DNA of 64,000 bases from contig CAZGGB010000006.1 of the NCBI GenBank assembly GCA_964525115.1, positions 162 through 64,161 on the forward strand. The letters run 5' to 3'. Position 1 is the first letter of the stretch. Each line of letters starts with the position of its first letter. The notes below the pieces were generated by a model. It was given only the letters and a program-made list of their open reading frames with translations, did no database searches and was not told the DNA's origin. Position numbers and translations under genes: made by a program. Shown here one piece after another: positions 1 through 7,567 of this stretch. Source of the stretch: an uncultured Sangeribacter sp. (GTDB lineage: Bacteria > Bacteroidota > Bacteroidia > Bacteroidales > Muribaculaceae).

Positions 1-287
1 CCTTATCCTCTAAATCTCGGAGGGAAGCTGAGGCAACCTCTCTCCTATTTCCGAATTTCTCAGCACCGCTTTATCCAAACGTCTCGGAACGGGGCAATGG
101 AGCGATGTCTCGTTCTACTCACTTTGAGCAGAATAAAGGGATCCTACTGTACTTCAGATCACGCAGCGAGAGCGTAATTGTTATTTTCGCCAATTATAGT
201 TCGATACGTCGGTATTAAAGAGCTTACGCATCAAGGCTCTGCATGCTTGCTTACCGCTTCTACACGCTGTCAAAGCCAGTCACCCCC
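1..287 (-). ncRNA. ssrA: tmRNA, 5' portion (3' end lies beyond the window edge)
   Basis: Minus strand begins GGGGGTGACTGGCTTTGACAGC (tRNA-Ala-like 5' end) and carries the tag frame GGC GAA AAT AAC AAT TAC GCT CTC GCT GCG TGA = GENNNYALAA* at 191..159, ending in the canonical YALAA degron. Confidence 0.95.
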
Positions 288-354
288 CATTAAATGGTGG
301 TTGCAATTGCGGTTGCATGATATTAAACGTATAGAAAAGGTTATTTGTTTAAAG

Positions 355-387
355 AAATCGGAGAAATTTTTAAAATTTCTCCGATTT
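355..387. terminator. 15-bp perfect hairpin just after the glnS stop
   Basis: AAATCGGAGAAATTT-tta-AAATTTCTCCGATTT. Confidence 0.65.
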
Positions 388-396
388 TAATATATT

Positions 397-2100
397 TTAA
401 CCTTTCTTCTGTTCCTTTGCCCATGTATCGCGCAGTCCGATAGTCTTATTGAATACCAGATGATCGTCAGTGCTATCCGGGTCAACAGTATAATAGCCCA
501 AACGCTGGAACTGGAAGTGGTCGCCAGGTTTAGCATTCTCAGCAAGCCAAGGCTCGACCATGACATTTTCTCTTATCTTAAGAGAATCAGGATTGAGAAG
601 ATCGCGGAAATCACCTTCTTCTGCTGAGGGATTCTCAACAGAGAAAAGTCGATCATAGTCGCGCACCTCAACCTTAACAGCAGTCGGAACATTGACCCAA
701 TGAAGAGTTCCTTTCACTTTTCTATCTGCACCTGGAAGACCATTGCGAGTTTCAAAGTCAACGTCGGCATGAATAGCAGTTATATTGCCATCTGCATCCT
801 TGTCCACACCGGTACACTTAACAATGTAAGCACCCTTAAGTCGAACCTCATTGCCCGGACTCATTCGGAAGAACTTCTTTGGAGGATTTTCCATAAAGTC
901 TTCGCGTTCGATCCAAAGTTCGCGACTGAACGGCATCTCGTGCTTGCCGGCGTTAGGATCTTCGGGATTTGAGTCGAGAAGCATTGTCTCAGTCTTATCT
1001 TGCGGATAGTTGTCGAGAATGAGTTTGACCGGGTTCTGAACAGCACATACTCGAGTAGCAGTTGCATTAAGGTCTTCACGTACAGAATGCTCAAGAAGCT
1101 CAATGTGATTGAGAGCTTCATATTTGGTGTAGCCTATCCGATTGACAAAATTCTTTATCGCCGACGGAGTATAACCACGTCGACGCAGGCCACATAATGT
1201 AGGCATGCGAGGGTCATCCCATCCTCTGACAAGACCCTCCTTCACAAGCTGCAAAAGCTTGCGCTTGCTCATCACGGTATACGTCAAGTTAAGACGATTG
1301 AACTCAATCTGACGAGGACAATAAGTTTCATCAGCAAGTTCTTTCACAAAATACTCGTAAAGCGGACGATGAGGTACGAATTCAAGAGTACAAATTGAGT
1401 GAGTCACTCCTTCAAAATAATCACTCTGTCCATGAGCAAAGTCATACATTGGATATACTTTCCAAGTATCACCGGTGCGCCAGTGAGGAGTTTTAATAAT
1501 ACGATACATGATGGGATCGCGGAAGTGCATATTATCGCTTGCCATATCAATCTTCGCACGAAGCACCATTGACCCTTCTTCGAACTCACCACGATTCATA
1601 GCCTCAAAAAGACGGAGATTTTCTTCTATAGGACGGTCACGGAAAGGGGAATTTTGTCCGGGTTGAGTTGGAGTACCCTTTTGACGGGCAATTTCTTCGC
1701 TTGATTGCTCATCCACATAAGCCTTTCCTTCTTTAATCATTCTCACAGCAAGATCCCAAAGCTGTGGAAAATAATCGGAAGCATAATAAAGTCGGTCGCC
1801 CCAATCAAAACCAAGCCAATGGATATCTCGTTTTATAGCCTCAACATACTCAGTATCCTCCTTCTGAGGATTCGTGTCGTCGAAGCGAAGGTTGCAGGTG
1901 CCACCAAACTTTTCAGCTGCGCCGAAATCCATGATGATAGCTTTGGCATGTCCTATGTGGAGATAACCATTAGGCTCAGGTGGGAATCGGGTATTAAGTC
2001 TACCACCGTTTTTTCCAGCCTCAAGATCCTCTTTAATGTATTGCTCTACAAAGTTAAGGCCTGATTCATTCTCTTTGATTTCTTCAGTTGTTTCTGCCAT
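397..2100 (-). CDS. glnS: Glutamine--tRNA ligase
   Basis: TRFPPEPNGYLHIGH (HIGH), LRFDDTNP, VMSKRKL, WDDPRMPT, FQFQRLGYY. ATG at 2100 preferred over the track's TTG at 2139. Confidence 0.97.
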   Translation of the reverse strand: MAETTEEIKENESGLNFVEQYIKEDLEAGKNGGRLNTRFPPEPNGYLHIGHAKAIIMDFGAAEKFGGTCNLRFDDTNPQKEDTEYVEAIKRDIHWLGFDWGDRLYYASDYFPQLWDLAVRMIKEGKAYVDEQSSEEIARQKGTPTQPGQNSPFRDRPIEENLRLFEAMNRGEFEEGSMVLRAKIDMASDNMHFRDPIMYRIIKTPHWRTGDTWKVYPMYDFAHGQSDYFEGVTHSICTLEFVPHRPLYEYFVKELADETYCPRQIEFNRLNLTYTVMSKRKLLQLVKEGLVRGWDDPRMPTLCGLRRRGYTPSAIKNFVNRIGYTKYEALNHIELLEHSVREDLNATATRVCAVQNPVKLILDNYPQDKTETMLLDSNPEDPNAGKHEMPFSRELWIEREDFMENPPKKFFRMSPGNEVRLKGAYIVKCTGVDKDADGNITAIHADVDFETRNGLPGADRKVKGTLHWVNVPTAVKVEVRDYDRLFSVENPSAEEGDFRDLLNPDSLKIRENVMVEPWLAENAKPGDHFQFQRLGYYTVDPDSTDDHLVFNKTIGLRDTWAKEQKKG

Positions 2101-2119
2101 AATTGGATTAAATTTACTG

Positions 2120-2156
2120 ATCAACCAAGAGCCCTTCAAAGGAGCTCGTCGTTGAT
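2120..2156 (-). promoter_or_regulatory. glnS 5'-leader hairpin with tRNA-Gln anticodon-like loop
   Basis: mRNA AUCAAC-GAC-GAGCUC[CUUUGAA]GGGCUC-UUG-GUUGAU; the G-U pair forms only on the mRNA strand. Confidence 0.6.
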
Positions 2157-2175
2157 TCCTGCGTTAATTTAGATG

Positions 2176-2183
2176 CAAAATTA
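2176..2183 (-). promoter_or_regulatory. Bacteroidetes -7 promoter element (glnS)
   Basis: TAATTTTG matches TAnnTTTG. Confidence 0.7.
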
Positions 2184-2200
2184 ATAAATTAAGGTGTAAC

Positions 2201-2237
2201 AACAAAAAAAATGCGACAATAGCCGCATTTTTTTGTT
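2201..2237 (-). terminator. Intrinsic terminator of the ECF sigma gene (bidirectional shape)
   Basis: A-tract-ATGCG...CGCAT-T-tract. Confidence 0.7.
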
Positions 2238-2320
2238 TAATACATTTATTAATTAGAATACATCTCACAAAATTTCGGCTACCCTGAGGCTTAGAAATTT
2301 TATGAGATTTGGTATTAATT

Positions 2321-2818
2321 TTATGAAAGAGCCGCACGAAGACGCTTGCGAGCGAAAAAGATACGGCTTTTCACCGTGCCAACAGGAAGGTTGAGCTCCT
2401 CAGCAATCTCGCTGTATTTATATCCGGCAACGTGCATGTTGAAAGGAACACGGAATTCATCGTCGAAAGTAGCAAGGATTTCATTGATTTCCTTGACAGT
2501 CATACTTCCATCAGGGGTTTCGAGAGCTGATTCCTGAGATGTATTTAGATGATAGAGATCTTCTGTAGTGTCAACTAAAGTTGCCTGGCGAACGGTCTTG
2601 CGATAGTTGTTGATGAAAATATTACGCATGATCGTCATCACCCAACCCTTGAAATTGGCATCGGAAGTAAATTTTTCTTCATTGTCGAGTGCCTTGAGGG
2701 TAGTATCCTGAAGAAGATCTGCAGCAGCATCGTGATCAGCTGTAAGCTGATAGGCGAAATTCATCAGATTCGACTGAAGATTGATGAGGTTCTTGCGGAA
2801 TGAGTTATTAGATGCCAT
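2321..2818 (-). CDS. ECF RNA polymerase sigma-70 factor
   Basis: Region 2 (DLLQDT..KA; NFKGWVMTIMRNIFINNYRK) and region 4 (YSEIAEELNLPVGTVKSRIFFAR); ATG at 2818. Confidence 0.93.
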   Translation of the reverse strand: MASNNSFRKNLINLQSNLMNFAYQLTADHDAAADLLQDTTLKALDNEEKFTSDANFKGWVMTIMRNIFINNYRKTVRQATLVDTTEDLYHLNTSQESALETPDGSMTVKEINEILATFDDEFRVPFNMHVAGYKYSEIAEELNLPVGTVKSRIFFARKRLRAALS

Positions 2819-2901: not shown

Positions 2902-3073
2902 AACTATTTTTTCAAAAAGTGCCAATTTTGATGAACTTTTTCATATATAATTAAATATCAATAATTTATAAGCGATTAAATTAATATATCATTTGTAAAA
3001 CAACGTGAAATGTCGCTGTAACAAATTTGAAACAAAGTTGTTCGATAGTATTGGGAGAATGGGAATTTTTTGC

Positions 3074-3081
3074 TAATTTTG
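3074..3081 (+). promoter_or_regulatory. -7 promoter element (helicase-lon)
   Basis: TAATTTTG. Confidence 0.7.
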
Positions 3082-3090
3082 CAGAATAAA

Positions 3091-4380
3091 ATGAAAATGA
3101 TGAGATTTGATCAACTTCTTGAAAACGACGATCTGCTTGATGCACTATGGGACATGCACTTTGATGAGTGCACTCCTATCCAAGAGCAGGCAATACCGGC
3201 AGTTATAGACGGACGCGATCTCTTGGCTTGTGCTCAGACGGGGACAGGAAAAACAGCTGCATATCTTCTTCCGGTGATTGATATTCTATCTACTTATCAA
3301 TATCCTCAGGATGCTGTCAACTGTGTGATCATGGCACCAACTCGAGAACTTGCACAACAAATAGACCAGCAGATGCAAGGCTTCTCATATTTCCTACCCA
3401 TTAGTAGCATGCCAGTGTATGGAGGCACAGACGGACATACTTACGACCAACAACGGCGCAGTCTAAAAGCAGGTGCTGATGTCGTGATTGCTACTCCCGG
3501 CAGACTGCTTGCTCATCTTTCGATGGGATATGTAGATCTATCAAAAGTATCATTTTTCATTCTTGATGAAGCCGACAGGATGCTCGATATGGGATTTTAC
3601 GATGATATAATGCAGATAGTGGGGCGCCTGCCAAAAGAGAGACAGACTCTTCTTTTCAGTGCTACTATGCCTCCAAAGATACAGCAACTTGCCAACAATA
3701 TCCTTAACAATCCTCATGTGATAAAGCTTGCAGTATCGAAGCCGGCTGAAAAAATAAGGCAGCAAGCATATGTCTGCTATGAAATTCAAAAACTACCTAT
3801 TCTCCAATCCATATTCAAAAATAACCCTCCTGATAAAGTTATAGTATTTTCTTCATCAAAACTAAAAGTCAAAGAACTTGCCAAAACTTTAAAGAAGGAA
3901 CACTATAAGGTCGGAGAAATGCATTCCGATCTCGAGCAGGATAAACGTGAAGACGTGATTATTGATTTCAAAAGTGGAAAGATTAATGTTCTTGTTGCTA
4001 CAGATATAATGTCGCGTGGGATTGATATCGACGATATAGAACTTGTAGTGAACTATGATGTGCCTCGCGAATCAGAAGATTATGTGCACCGTATCGGAAG
4101 AACTGCACGTGCTGATAAGGAAGGTAAGGCCATTACTTTCATTTCAGAGAAGGAAATATTCAGTTTCAAGAAAATAGAAAAATTCCTTGAAATAGAAGTT
4201 GAGAAAGTTGAAATTCCAGCTGAACTCGGAGAAGGCCCTGCCTACGTCTCGAAGAAAAGTAACCGTCGCACCAATCACCATAAAAGGACTAATTATCATC
4301 ATAGAAAGAAAAAGGAATCCGCAAAAAATTCCGGCAATCAAAACCGAAGCAATAAGAAAAATAAGCTTGTAGAATCATGA
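3091..4380 (+). CDS. DEAD-box RNA helicase
   Basis: Q motif TPIQ, AQTGTGKT, PTRELA, TPGRL, DEAD, SAT, HRIGRT; basic C-terminal tail. Start is one of ATG 3091/3097/3100. Confidence 0.95.
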   Translation: MKMMRFDQLLENDDLLDALWDMHFDECTPIQEQAIPAVIDGRDLLACAQTGTGKTAAYLLPVIDILSTYQYPQDAVNCVIMAPTRELAQQIDQQMQGFSYFLPISSMPVYGGTDGHTYDQQRRSLKAGADVVIATPGRLLAHLSMGYVDLSKVSFFILDEADRMLDMGFYDDIMQIVGRLPKERQTLLFSATMPPKIQQLANNILNNPHVIKLAVSKPAEKIRQQAYVCYEIQKLPILQSIFKNNPPDKVIVFSSSKLKVKELAKTLKKEHYKVGEMHSDLEQDKREDVIIDFKSGKINVLVATDIMSRGIDIDDIELVVNYDVPRESEDYVHRIGRTARADKEGKAITFISEKEIFSFKKIEKFLEIEVEKVEIPAELGEGPAYVSKKSNRRTNHHKRTNYHHRKKKESAKNSGNQNRSNKKNKLVES

Positions 4381-6812
4381 GCCATAAGCAAACTGACTAT
4401 AAAACATATAAATCCTACGAGTCCATGAGTACCGCTAATCCTGTCAACGGCATAATGTCGGAAGTGGCACCCGATTTCAATTTTGATAACACCGTCATCA
4501 ATGAGCGTCACATCCCTGTGGTGCCTGTACGCAATATTGTATTGTATCCGTTCATAACAGTTCCACTTTCGGTCACAGATCATTCAGTGCTTGATGTTCT
4601 CGACATGGCTCAAAAGAACCATGAAGCCGTTCTTACTCTTACAGTCAAAAATGACGTAGAAAAAATAACGACAAAGGATCTTTACAGAATAGGTGTAGTC
4701 TGTGTTGTAGCAAGGATTATGGAAATGCCCGACGGAAGTTATACCGCTTTTATGGTTGCCGCCAACAGGGTAAAGGCAAATAGAATAACAACCAAGGAAA
4801 ATGGCTTTTTTGCAAGTATCGAGTACATTCCGGAAATAATGCCTGAGAAAGAAGATATGGAGCTTGCAGCCATATTCTCTTCTGTAAATGATGCTTTCAC
4901 TGAGATACTTGGTCTTTTCGGGGAGGAAGAGACAAAAGATCTCAGGTTTGCCTTATCACAATTCAGTAGTCCGTTTAAGTTGATTAATTTCATAATATGC
5001 AACTCCCCTCTCACACTTGAAGACAAACAGAAACTTCTTGAAGAATCTGATATCAAAATGCGATGTTCGGCACTCTTGCACATGCTTGACAAAGCTTATC
5101 AGATGCTTCAGTTAAAAGTTGATATCCAAGAACGCACAAGAGAAGACTTGACAAAACAACAACGTGATCAATTTCTTCAGCAACAGCTCCGTGCAATAAA
5201 AGAGGAACTTGGCGACATGCCTGAAGATAGTGATGAAGCGGAACTTTTGGCTAAGGCTGAAAAAAAGCAATGGGGAAAAGAAATAGAAAACCATTTCAAT
5301 AAGGAATTGAAAAAACTTGGACGGTTCATAGCGTCAACTCCTGAATATGGCATACAATATACCTATTTAAATACACTTCTGTCACTTCCTTGGGACAAGA
5401 AGAAAGAAACCTCTATGGATCTGGAGCATGTAGAGGAAATATTAAACCGCGATCATTTTGGACTTGGAAAGATCAAAGATAGGATTCTTGAGCAAGTAGC
5501 TGTAATGAAACTTCGTGGAGACATGAAAGCTCCGATTCTTTGCCTCTATGGCCCCCCGGGTGTTGGAAAGACATCTCTTGGAAAGTCTGTTGCAGAAGCT
5601 CTCGGGAGGGATTATGCTCGCATTTCTCTTGGAGGACTTCATGATGAAGCGGAGATTCGTGGACATCGTCGCACTTACATAGGAGCTATGCCGGGAAGAA
5701 TAATTGCAGCTCTTGAAAAGACTGAGAGCAATAACCCGGTGATAGTGCTTGATGAGATTGATAAAATAAGCAAGGATATTAAAGGGGATCCTTCAGCAGC
5801 TCTTCTTGAAGTGCTTGATCCGGAACAAAATTCACATTTTCATGATAATTATGTAGATGTTGATTATAATCTGTCGGATATACTTTTTATAGCTACTGCC
5901 AATACACTTGATTCCATTTCGGCTCCACTTTTAGACCGTATGGAGGTCATAGAAGTCTCCGGATATATAGTAGAGGAGAAAATTGAGATTGCTAAGCGTC
6001 ATCTTTTGCCTAAAGCATTGGTTGAACTTGGATTTGAAAAAGATGATGTAAAAATCTCTGATGAAAGCATAAAGTTTATAATTGAATATTATACCAGAGA
6101 ATCAGGAGTCCGCCAACTTGATAAAACAATCAGAACACTTTTGCGACGTCTTGCTATATATAAGGCAACCGATAAAAAACTGCCTAATCTGATTGAATCA
6201 AAAGAAATTAAAAATATCTTGGGAAAAGAGAAGCATGTAAGCGAGCTATATGAAGGGAATGTTTATATAGGAGTGGTGACAGGATTAGCTTGGACAGCAG
6301 CTGGAGGAGAAATTTTATTCATAGAATCCTCACTTTCCAAAGGGAAAGGTGAAAAATTAACCCTTACCGGCAATCTTGGAGATGTCATGAAGGAGTCAGC
6401 CACAATAGCCCTTGAATATATTAAGGCACATGCTGAGGATTTAGGTATTGATGAGAAAAAGTTGAATGATTATAATGTTCATATTCATGTGCCAGAAGGA
6501 GCAATTCCAAAAGATGGCCCTTCGGCCGGCATTACAATGGTGACATCACTCGTATCATCATATACAGGTAGGAAAGTAAGGGAAAGAGTAGCGATGACAG
6601 GAGAAATGACTTTGCGCGGCAAGGTGCTACCCGTGGGAGGCATTAAAGAAAAAATCCTTGCAGCGAAAAGAGCTGGAATTACTGACATCATAATCTCTTC
6701 AGAAAATCGCAGGGATATAGACGAAATAGACAAAATTTACGTTGATGGTATTAATTTCTTATATGTCAATAAAATAGAAGAAGTGATCAATTTCGCTATT
6801 CTTAGAGATTAA
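4377..6812 (+). CDS. lon: Lon protease
   Basis: LON N-domain, GPPGVGKT, IRGHRRTYIGAMPG, PKDGPSAG, PVGGIKEK; ATGA overlap with the helicase. Confidence 0.97.
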   Translation: MSHKQTDYKTYKSYESMSTANPVNGIMSEVAPDFNFDNTVINERHIPVVPVRNIVLYPFITVPLSVTDHSVLDVLDMAQKNHEAVLTLTVKNDVEKITTKDLYRIGVVCVVARIMEMPDGSYTAFMVAANRVKANRITTKENGFFASIEYIPEIMPEKEDMELAAIFSSVNDAFTEILGLFGEEETKDLRFALSQFSSPFKLINFIICNSPLTLEDKQKLLEESDIKMRCSALLHMLDKAYQMLQLKVDIQERTREDLTKQQRDQFLQQQLRAIKEELGDMPEDSDEAELLAKAEKKQWGKEIENHFNKELKKLGRFIASTPEYGIQYTYLNTLLSLPWDKKKETSMDLEHVEEILNRDHFGLGKIKDRILEQVAVMKLRGDMKAPILCLYGPPGVGKTSLGKSVAEALGRDYARISLGGLHDEAEIRGHRRTYIGAMPGRIIAALEKTESNNPVIVLDEIDKISKDIKGDPSAALLEVLDPEQNSHFHDNYVDVDYNLSDILFIATANTLDSISAPLLDRMEVIEVSGYIVEEKIEIAKRHLLPKALVELGFEKDDVKISDESIKFIIEYYTRESGVRQLDKTIRTLLRRLAIYKATDKKLPNLIESKEIKNILGKEKHVSELYEGNVYIGVVTGLAWTAAGGEILFIESSLSKGKGEKLTLTGNLGDVMKESATIALEYIKAHAEDLGIDEKKLNDYNVHIHVPEGAIPKDGPSAGITMVTSLVSSYTGRKVRERVAMTGEMTLRGKVLPVGGIKEKILAAKRAGITDIIISSENRRDIDEIDKIYVDGINFLYVNKIEEVINFAILRD

Positions 6813-6976: not shown

Positions 6977-7567
6977 ATGGCAAACTATGGAAGCATGACC
7001 GACGAACAATTGGTCAGAGCTTACGCGGAAGGCAACAATGAGGCTTTCGACTCGCTGCTCAAGCGTCATCAAGACAAGACATTCAACTATATCCTCCGTG
7101 TCGTCAAGAACGAGGATGTAGCCAACGACATATTTCAGGAAACCTTCGTGAAGGCAATCCTGACTATCAAACAGGGACGTTACACTGAGAACGGAAAGTT
7201 TCCCGCATGGATTTCGAGAATAGCACACAACCTAATCATTGACTATTATCGACAGGAAAAATCCGAAAATATGCAGAGTACGGATATTGAGGATATAGAC
7301 ATTCTCAATAAAAAGGAACTGTGTGAAGGCACGATCGAAGATCGTATAATCTCTGATCAAATCAGAGACGATGTGAAAATGCTTGTCACTCAACTTCCAG
7401 ACCTGCAACGCGAGGTTCTGACTATGCGTTACTATAAGAATCTCTCATTTAAAGAGATTGCAGAGAAAACAGGTGTAAGCATTAATACTGCACTAGGCAG
7501 AATGCGATATGCCATTATCAATCTTCGCAGAATTGCACAGGAGAAAGACGTGGCGCTTACATTCTAA
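6977..7567 (+). CDS. ECF sigma-70 factor, Bacteroidetes SigH-like
   Basis: TDEQLV, ANDIFQETFVK, GKFPAWISRIAHNL, SFKEIAEKTGVSINTALGRMRYA; SigH-like assignment is from recalled resemblance. Confidence 0.9.
   Translation: MANYGSMTDEQLVRAYAEGNNEAFDSLLKRHQDKTFNYILRVVKNEDVANDIFQETFVKAILTIKQGRYTENGKFPAWISRIAHNLIIDYYRQEKSENMQSTDIEDIDILNKKELCEGTIEDRIISDQIRDDVKMLVTQLPDLQREVLTMRYYKNLSFKEIAEKTGVSINTALGRMRYAIINLRRIAQEKDVALTF

Follow-up and report, generated by a model that had tools for sequence, protein, structure and literature searches.

A covarying hairpin in the glnS leader of one Sangeribacter clade, most likely a single-arm mimic of tRNA-Gln

Background

Escherichia coli ThrRS represses its own synthesis through an operator in the thrS leader, which provides the precedent for the element described here (PMC7373986). 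The thrS operator resembles the glnS leader analysed in this work in that a hairpin with a cognate-anticodon loop is located in a synthetase leader, just 5' of the initiation region (PMC7373986, PMC9976931). The two differ in that the glnS leader contains one hairpin rather than two, has no Shine-Dalgarno (SD) sequence to block, carries an additional conserved internal loop and 5' tail, and is confined to one clade; the enzymes also belong to different classes, GlnRS to class Ib and ThrRS to class IIa. The thrS operator presents two mimic domains to a dimeric enzyme, and only one hairpin was found before glnS. Because the two-domain arrangement is specific to dimeric ThrRS, this difference makes it less likely that the element is a thrS operator, but not that it works like one. 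In yeast, the GlnRS mRNA ranked first among the approximately 5,000 transcripts bound by GlnRS, the feedback exerted by HisRS is mediated by anticodon-like elements, and AspRS binds its own mRNA via the leader (PMC6542539). Unlike the element reported here, these systems are eukaryotic, and the accessible part of that paper describes no covarying GlnRS element. A structured glnS leader was also predicted in Shewanella by an RSSVM screen (Table 3 of PMC2659441), in this case in another phylum, and the word 'anticodon' does not occur in that paper.

T-box riboswitches (RF00230) and the glutamine riboswitches (glnA, Downstream-peptide) are likewise cis-acting RNAs that precede synthetase or glutamine genes, and the 5' tail of the glnS motif, a Gln codon followed by a purine, recalls them; in contrast to these families, the hairpin has no Rfam match up to E 10, is far too short for a T-box and lacks a terminator switch. 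A full-text search of the literature returned neither an anticodon mimic before a bacterial glnS nor this motif, with the supplementary motif tables of RNA screens being places that could hold one, and no feedback control was found in the literature for most Bacteroidota synthetase genes. Cheung et al. are said to have reported, in 1985, 'two control systems' for E. coli glnS. The glnS leader hairpin is described here as a cis-regulatory RNA that is new and narrowly distributed; most probably it mimics one arm of tRNA-Gln and serves GlnRS autoregulation.

Results and discussion

The glnS locus and its leader

The window is the whole 64,000-nt stretch of DNA that was analysed, from an uncultured Sangeribacter species, and the coordinates of its features are listed in Table 1. 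Its glnS gene encodes a full-length GlnRS (TIGR00440, 686 bits against a cut-off of 426) that matched E. coli GlnRS structures at E 1e-189. The leader motif comprises 46 nt on the minus strand (window 2162-2117), between the promoter and glnS. Its sequence, the -7 box at 2183-2176, the stems and the CUUUGAA loop are as the first-pass annotation had given them, and the hairpin, which was said to end about 20 nt before the AUG, has 19 nt between its stem foot and the ATG (15–19 nt in relatives).

Table 1. Positions of the features discussed (window coordinates unless a locus is named)
Feature	Position	Strand	Basis
tmRNA gene, 5' part, downstream of glnS	1..287	-	ARAGORN; Rfam RF00023 in relatives
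Predicted terminator after glnS: 16-bp inverted repeat (387-355) + short T-run	351..387	-	read from sequence
glnS, glutamine-tRNA ligase, 567 aa	397..2100	-	ORF, TIGR00440, structure match
A/U-rich spacer; includes the -13 A of the SD-less start region	2101..2119	-	relatives
Two-stem hairpin	2120..2156	-	comparison of relatives
Stem P1, 6 bp	2156-2151/2125-2120	-	
3x3 internal loop; the A, C and U at tRNA positions 24, 25 and 45 do not vary	2150-2148/2128-2126	-	
Stem P2, 6 bp, closed by C-G (tRNA 31-39)	2147-2142/2134-2129	-	
7-nt loop C-Y-U-U-G-A-A, in the window CUUUGAA	2135..2141	-	
UUG, tRNA-Gln anticodon at positions 34-36 of the loop	2139-2137	-	own tRNA-Gln(UUG) in genome
5' GCAGG tail, never varying; contains CAG, a Gln codon, and complements loop YUUG	2158..2162	-	relatives
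Predicted -7 element TAnnTTTG, here TAATTTTG	2176..2183	-	sequence, relatives
Predicted -33 element TTTG, 19 nt 5' of the -7 box	2203..2206	-	sequence, consensus
Predicted intrinsic terminator of the sigma factor gene: 6-bp GC stem between an A-run and a T-run	2204..2234	-	sequence, relatives
ECF-type sigma factor gene, upstream neighbour	2321..2818	-	ORF, sigma70-ECF superfamily match, synteny
DEAD-box helicase, ordinary neighbour	3070-4380	+	
Lon protease, ordinary neighbour	4377-6812	+	
Sigma-like ORF (candidate)	6977-7567	+	
thrS leader hairpin loci	L409-L412, L414, L415, L417-L419, L422; e.g., on the strand given, L415:1195-1258	+	

The predicted promoter elements follow the TTTG / TAnnTTTG consensus of Bacteroidota -33/-7 promoters (PMC7366714). 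Among the 21 loci with the motif, the -7 box sits 12–21 nt 5' of the motif in every case, and a TTTG is spaced 19–21 nt from it in 19. The distance from the -7 box to the start site is 4–5 nt in Bacteroidota (PMC6847099), which places the predicted start at approximately 2171-2170, so that the entire motif would be transcribed. The single RNA run (share 0.10, contigs only) is without coverage of 2017-2298 and uninformative for the leader. The leader measures 67–79 nt across motif loci, and the hairpin lies between the predicted -33/-7 promoter and the ATG in 21/21, as judged from the start site predicted in this way. An A is found at -13 in 20 of the 21 loci, within the A-rich region from -14 to -11 that promotes initiation in Bacteroidota (PMC6847099). 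When the leader is folded in silico this region stays mostly open, and since the folded hairpin does not itself close it, repression would need a bound protein.

The terminator pattern that closes the upstream sigma factor gene was found in 19 of 20 relatives, with a loop that is free to vary between species. As terminators are predicted on both sides of glnS, its transcript is likely monocistronic and the leader likely controls glnS alone. Searching window positions 1950-2400 against Rfam 15 gave no match at the gathering threshold, the weak matches falling on the terminator, and the corresponding loci of four relatives returned tmRNA only.

Conservation and covariation of the hairpin

A protein search of the genus covered 220 genomes and found glnS in 189. 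The closest set, chosen by protein, consisted of 23 species with at least 97% identity over 190 residues, the window's own genome included. The motif is present in 21 of these, as 20 canonical gap-free copies and a degenerate variant (L044) with an 8-nt loop that still has UUGA inside. It is absent from the sister species L007 and L043, where the upstream gene is a different one; the ECF sigma factor neighbour is common to the motif-bearing loci read at length.

As a single sequence the hairpin is of modest stability (z -1.74, 12/200 shuffles, over 91 nt; z -2.40, 4/200, for the 46-nt core), and the minimum-energy fold of the window has a slipped register with a 4-nt loop. The register with the 7-nt loop comes from the relatives, for which RNAalifold returned the structure of the first-pass annotation unprompted. 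In the alignment, whose cores were cut with a pattern fixing seven of the first nine columns, 8 of the 12 pairs have two-sided changes and 96% of cells are paired; none of 500 shuffles was as good, and pairing dropped to 28–40% in slid-register controls. When changes were mapped on the glnS tree, partner columns changed together 20 times, compared with a mean of 5.1 for permuted partners (0/20,000). The genomes behind these counts are not near-identical DNA, since the fourfold-degenerate sites of glnS in the same 20 genomes are near saturation, at 40% pairwise identity with 5 of 178 sites invariant.

Against this background, 20 of the 46 columns of the motif are invariant. Six of the seven loop positions do not vary in the 20 canonical copies: C32, U34, U35, G36, A37 and A38 required 0 parsimony steps each, versus a mean of 7.4 at fourfold sites. 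Position 33 is U in nine copies and C in 11, with at least six U/C switches on the tree. The UUG triplet is kept in 22/22 distinct canonical cores, and CUG was never seen in its place; conservation of the loop triplet in relatives, by which the first-pass annotation had proposed to judge its reading, is thus what was found, along with covarying stems. The closing pair C31-G39 is present in 21 of the 22 cores and the inner P2 pairs vary. The tail GCAGG occurs in 21/21 loci, though it is partly fixed by the core-cutting pattern.

The opposite strand folds equally well (-16.4 vs -16.5 kcal/mol), so the single G-U pair of the window, which had been taken to identify the mRNA as the acting strand, does not do so. 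Across the alignment, however, G-U cells outnumber A.C cells by 15 to 3 (of 240), which points to an RNA acting on the mRNA strand. We regard it as extremely improbable that the motif acts as DNA (a second promoter or factor site), offers an upstream start via the loop UUG, or is a terminator. An ECF sigma factor gene does lie upstream in motif-bearing loci, and the loop TTG of the window opens a 13-codon extension in frame with glnS. Of the 20 copies, however, only 6 have the loop UUG in frame with glnS and followed by an open extension, the preponderance of G-U over A.C argues against a role as DNA, and the spacing of tail to loop is not enriched genome-wide (6 found, 11 expected). A terminator would be followed by a U-run, which is missing after the stem, and a separate terminator lies upstream.

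Distribution of the motif

GTDB species genomes and metagenome contigs were scanned with a pattern that left the loop unspecified, which resulted in 34 and 20 matches, respectively (54 in all). Eighteen of these (13 and 5) stand before glnS, and all 18 have the loop CYUUGAA, as read from the window at the outset, with 5–6 of the 6 P2 pairs. The other 36 lack this loop and form at most four P2 pairs, and we attribute them to chance. The majority of the 18 repeat known cores, and the distinct cores total 22. The 13 GTDB matches before glnS are assigned to Muribaculaceae (8), uncultured Porphyromonadaceae (4) and Bacteroidales (1); the tail is fixed in the scan pattern, so variants of the motif with a different tail would escape it.

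A covariance model built on the motif found one copy in the window's own genome (85% complete; 150 of 1,585 candidates scored). The second-best match was rejected as a copy because it lies inside a reading frame that we take, from its neighbourhood, to be TraM-like. The ORF run of locus L052 (G000:C13:21055-24099) resembles the tra genes of a conjugative transposon, its members presumably being TraK-, TraM- and TraN-like. In 151 genomes of the genus, the model gave 16 strong matches, every one at glnS within the clade; four weak matches, on contigs other than those with glnS, were discarded. The 151 genomes of the family yielded no strong match beyond the window's own genome, and 11 weak matches at loci without glnS were likewise discarded. 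A dispersed repeat or mobile palindrome would be expected in many copies beside unrelated genes, whereas the motif has one copy in the genome and 16 of 16 strong genus matches are at glnS.

The motif is absent from 135 other glnS leaders (71 in the genus, 44 in the family and 20 of the 23 order-level genomes with glnS), namely those of the two close species and 133 further ones. In a model search with filters off, the best E-value among 80 other glnS upstream regions was 0.27. The attribution to Bacteroidales in the first-pass annotation was therefore too wide: the glnS leader hairpin is real and under selection, and it is local to one clade of one genus.

A general excess of YUG loops before glnS was also considered. 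Such loops were counted in 7 of 135 leaders, compared with 2.9 ± 1.6 in shuffled leaders (7/200), but the excess was not accepted as YUG ranks only 7th of 32 triplet classes. The glnS leader of sister species L007 (L007:1374-1476, + strand, genome G001) is unrelated and contains a hairpin of 4 bp with CUG, the second of the Gln anticodons, at its centre. This hairpin has three of its four stem pairs in common with tRNA-Gln(CUG), and sister L043 has no such hairpin; it is possibly a product of chance or an independent replacement of the lost motif.

Resemblance to tRNA-Gln

In the window's own genome, 453 predicted leaders include a -7 box, and in 23 of these a stem of 6 bp carries an open loop of 7 nt. 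The glnS leader alone among the 23 has a YUG centre (1 of 28 such hairpins). U34, U35, G36 and A37 are four of the five loop identity elements listed for bacterial tRNA-Gln (PMC9976931); the loop disagrees with this list at U38, the list being that of E. coli, which may differ in Muribaculaceae. C32, A37 and A38 of the loop differ from U32, G37 and U38 of the genome's own tRNA-Gln, and C32-A38 is present in a functional Thermus thermophilus tRNA-Gln, positions 32, 37 and 38 varying by phylum (PMC3927822). The tRNA geometry originally proposed for the loop holds in the fixed placement of UUG at positions 34–36 but not at U33, where the C of 11 of the 20 copies rules out a canonical U-turn. GlnRS reads CUG as well as UUG, yet none of the 22 cores has C at position 34. 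A C31-G39 pair moves E. coli tRNAs from LysRS towards GlnRS, an effect that is faint, approximately 1e5-fold below tRNA-Gln (PMC1483225), and a closing C-G pair is also simply stable.

The likeness extends to the internal loop, where, counted from the triplet, the unvarying A, C and U fall on tRNA positions 24, 25 and 45 and position 26 is a purine. Among 48 tRNA variants for 19 amino acids, A24, C25, R26 and U45 jointly occur only in both tRNA-Gln, a match that was noticed post hoc. These variants came from four clade genomes, namely the window's own and three relatives with 88 tRNA loci (30/50, 28/28 and 30/45 of the matches used); without the U45 criterion, tRNA-Glu and tRNA-Leu(UAA) also fit (6/48). 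In the tRNA, A24 and C25 form D-stem pairs, but in the motif they are internal-loop bases. The tRNA 10-25 pair is a binding site of E. coli GlnRS (PMC9976931). Both tRNA-Gln of the genome (G000:C4:80664-80737 and C35:30113-30184) depart from the E. coli identity set in carrying G37, mismatched C27.U43, U11-A24 and A73. On the side of the enzyme, all 28 GlnRS examined retain the counterparts of E. coli Arg341, Arg402, Gln517 and Arg520, and the genus has Glu, Lys and His at E. coli Asn370, Arg412 and Glu323. We take these E. coli residues to have roles in reading U35, G36, base 34, U38 and G10. The accessible text of PMC10424219 and PMC1865053 contains nothing on operators or pocket residues.

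Anticodon mimicry alone gives no account of the invariance of the tail GCAGG. An unlikely alternative that would account for both the tail and Y33 is that the loop is fixed by a pseudoknot or folded-back pairing of CAGG with YUUG, for example in a small ligand switch, and that its anticodon look is incidental. Four tail-loop pairs are possible in 19/19 distinct rows, and the variable loop base, U or C, is opposite a G, which accepts both. These pairs have no two-sided change, however, and three of the four never vary; equal pairing is reached by 164 of 1,024 random 5-mers (16%) and by 8 of 20 permuted tails, and L044 retains the tail with an A opposing its last G. The pairing also leaves A37, A38, C32 and the G-U at position 34 unaccounted for, and the lack of an Rfam riboswitch match over the hairpin up to E 10 counts against a switch of this kind. 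Moreover, the tail is one base from P1 and the loop is 15 positions up the helix, so the covarying P1 would presumably have to melt or bend sharply. Nested folding placed no weight on the tail-loop pairing, by a method that cannot model pseudoknots.

The specifier of a T-box consists of a codon and then a purine. The tail, a Gln codon followed by a purine, has the same arrangement, and CAG-G could by this likeness pair with the anticodon loop of tRNA-Gln so that the leader senses the tRNA. We hold this to be very improbable, as there is no Rfam T-box match, a leader of this length has no long stem I, antiterminator or terminator, and four base pairs alone would probably not hold a tRNA. Also improbable, in our view, is a self-masking switch in which the tail (Gln codon) would hide the loop (Gln anticodon), GlnRS would take the open form, and tRNA-Gln would compete for the enzyme and perhaps for the tail. 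Such a switch would have arisen de novo in one clade, copying tRNA-Gln up to the D-stem/variable junction without tRNA ancestry.

Proposed autoregulation by GlnRS

We consider it fairly probable that GlnRS binds the anticodon-mimic hairpin and thereby represses the translation of glnS. With more GlnRS present than tRNA-Gln, the beta-barrels that bind the anticodon would take the UUG loop, and P2 and the internal loop would play the parts of the tRNA-Gln anticodon stem and 24-26/45 junction. The bound 567-residue enzyme, 15–19 nt from the AUG, would then block the A-rich region used by SD-less ribosomes, and competition by tRNA-Gln for GlnRS would relieve the block. GlnRS is a monomeric class I synthetase, which a single hairpin would suit. 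The thrS precedent (PMC7373986) is the source from which we infer binding, tRNA competition and whether the effect is repression.

If GlnRS binds the hairpin, autorepression of the thrS type would extend to a bacterial class I synthetase, and the leader would illustrate repression of an SD-less start by a bound protein. The motif is small, occurs in one clade and comes in 22 natural variants, from which constant positions can be told apart from variable ones, so it offers a test case for the speed at which tRNA mimicry is gained and lost; its narrow range limits its weight.

Other synthetase leaders of the clade

The leaders of 12 other synthetase genes were surveyed in five clade genomes (55 loci), and the cognate-anticodon loops that the first-pass annotation had suggested seeking there were not found in conserved form in any of the 12. 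The survey excludes alaS, argS, cysS, hisS, pheS, trpS and tyrS, along with a few truncated loci and the metG genes for which no start could be fixed (3/4). A single loop with a cognate centre turned up, in one genome and 120 nt 5' of leuS; it falls within the upstream gene and was rejected.

The thrS leaders of the clade share a conserved two-stem hairpin, whose 10-nt loop is fixed (consensus UUGCCGCUUU) and does not contain a Thr anticodon. It was read in 10 of 14 clade thrS leaders, with two-sided changes in 3 of 16 pairs and no Rfam match at threshold, and on its sequence we list it as a candidate new motif. No thrS was found in the window's own assembly.

The thrS loop is conserved without being an anticodon, and conserved loops in synthetase leaders thus need not be anticodons. 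This bears on a further reading of the glnS hairpin, rather unlikely in our view, as the site of another RNA-binding protein or as a structural determinant of how fast the mRNA is translated or how stable it is, with UUG arising by chance. The similar two-stem thrS hairpin in the same clade is in its favour, as is the number of invariant columns in the glnS motif, which exceeds the needs of an anticodon arm. A cognate triplet central in a 7-nt loop would, however, occur by chance in approximately 2 of 64 cases, and the one YUG among the 28 hairpins of the genome's leaders is that of glnS. A shared regulator would also be expected to have further sites, and the covariance model finds none in this 85%-complete genome.

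Shared elements were also seen before two other synthetase genes. A hairpin whose loop varies is common to the lysS leaders L248 and L249, which come from two clade genomes, and the aspS leaders L243-L246 have a conserved block just 5' of the start; neither carries a consistent cognate anticodon. At the other end of glnS, the tmRNA gene directly 3' of it encodes the tag GENNNYALAA, and the same neighbour was found in seven of the nine loci scanned.
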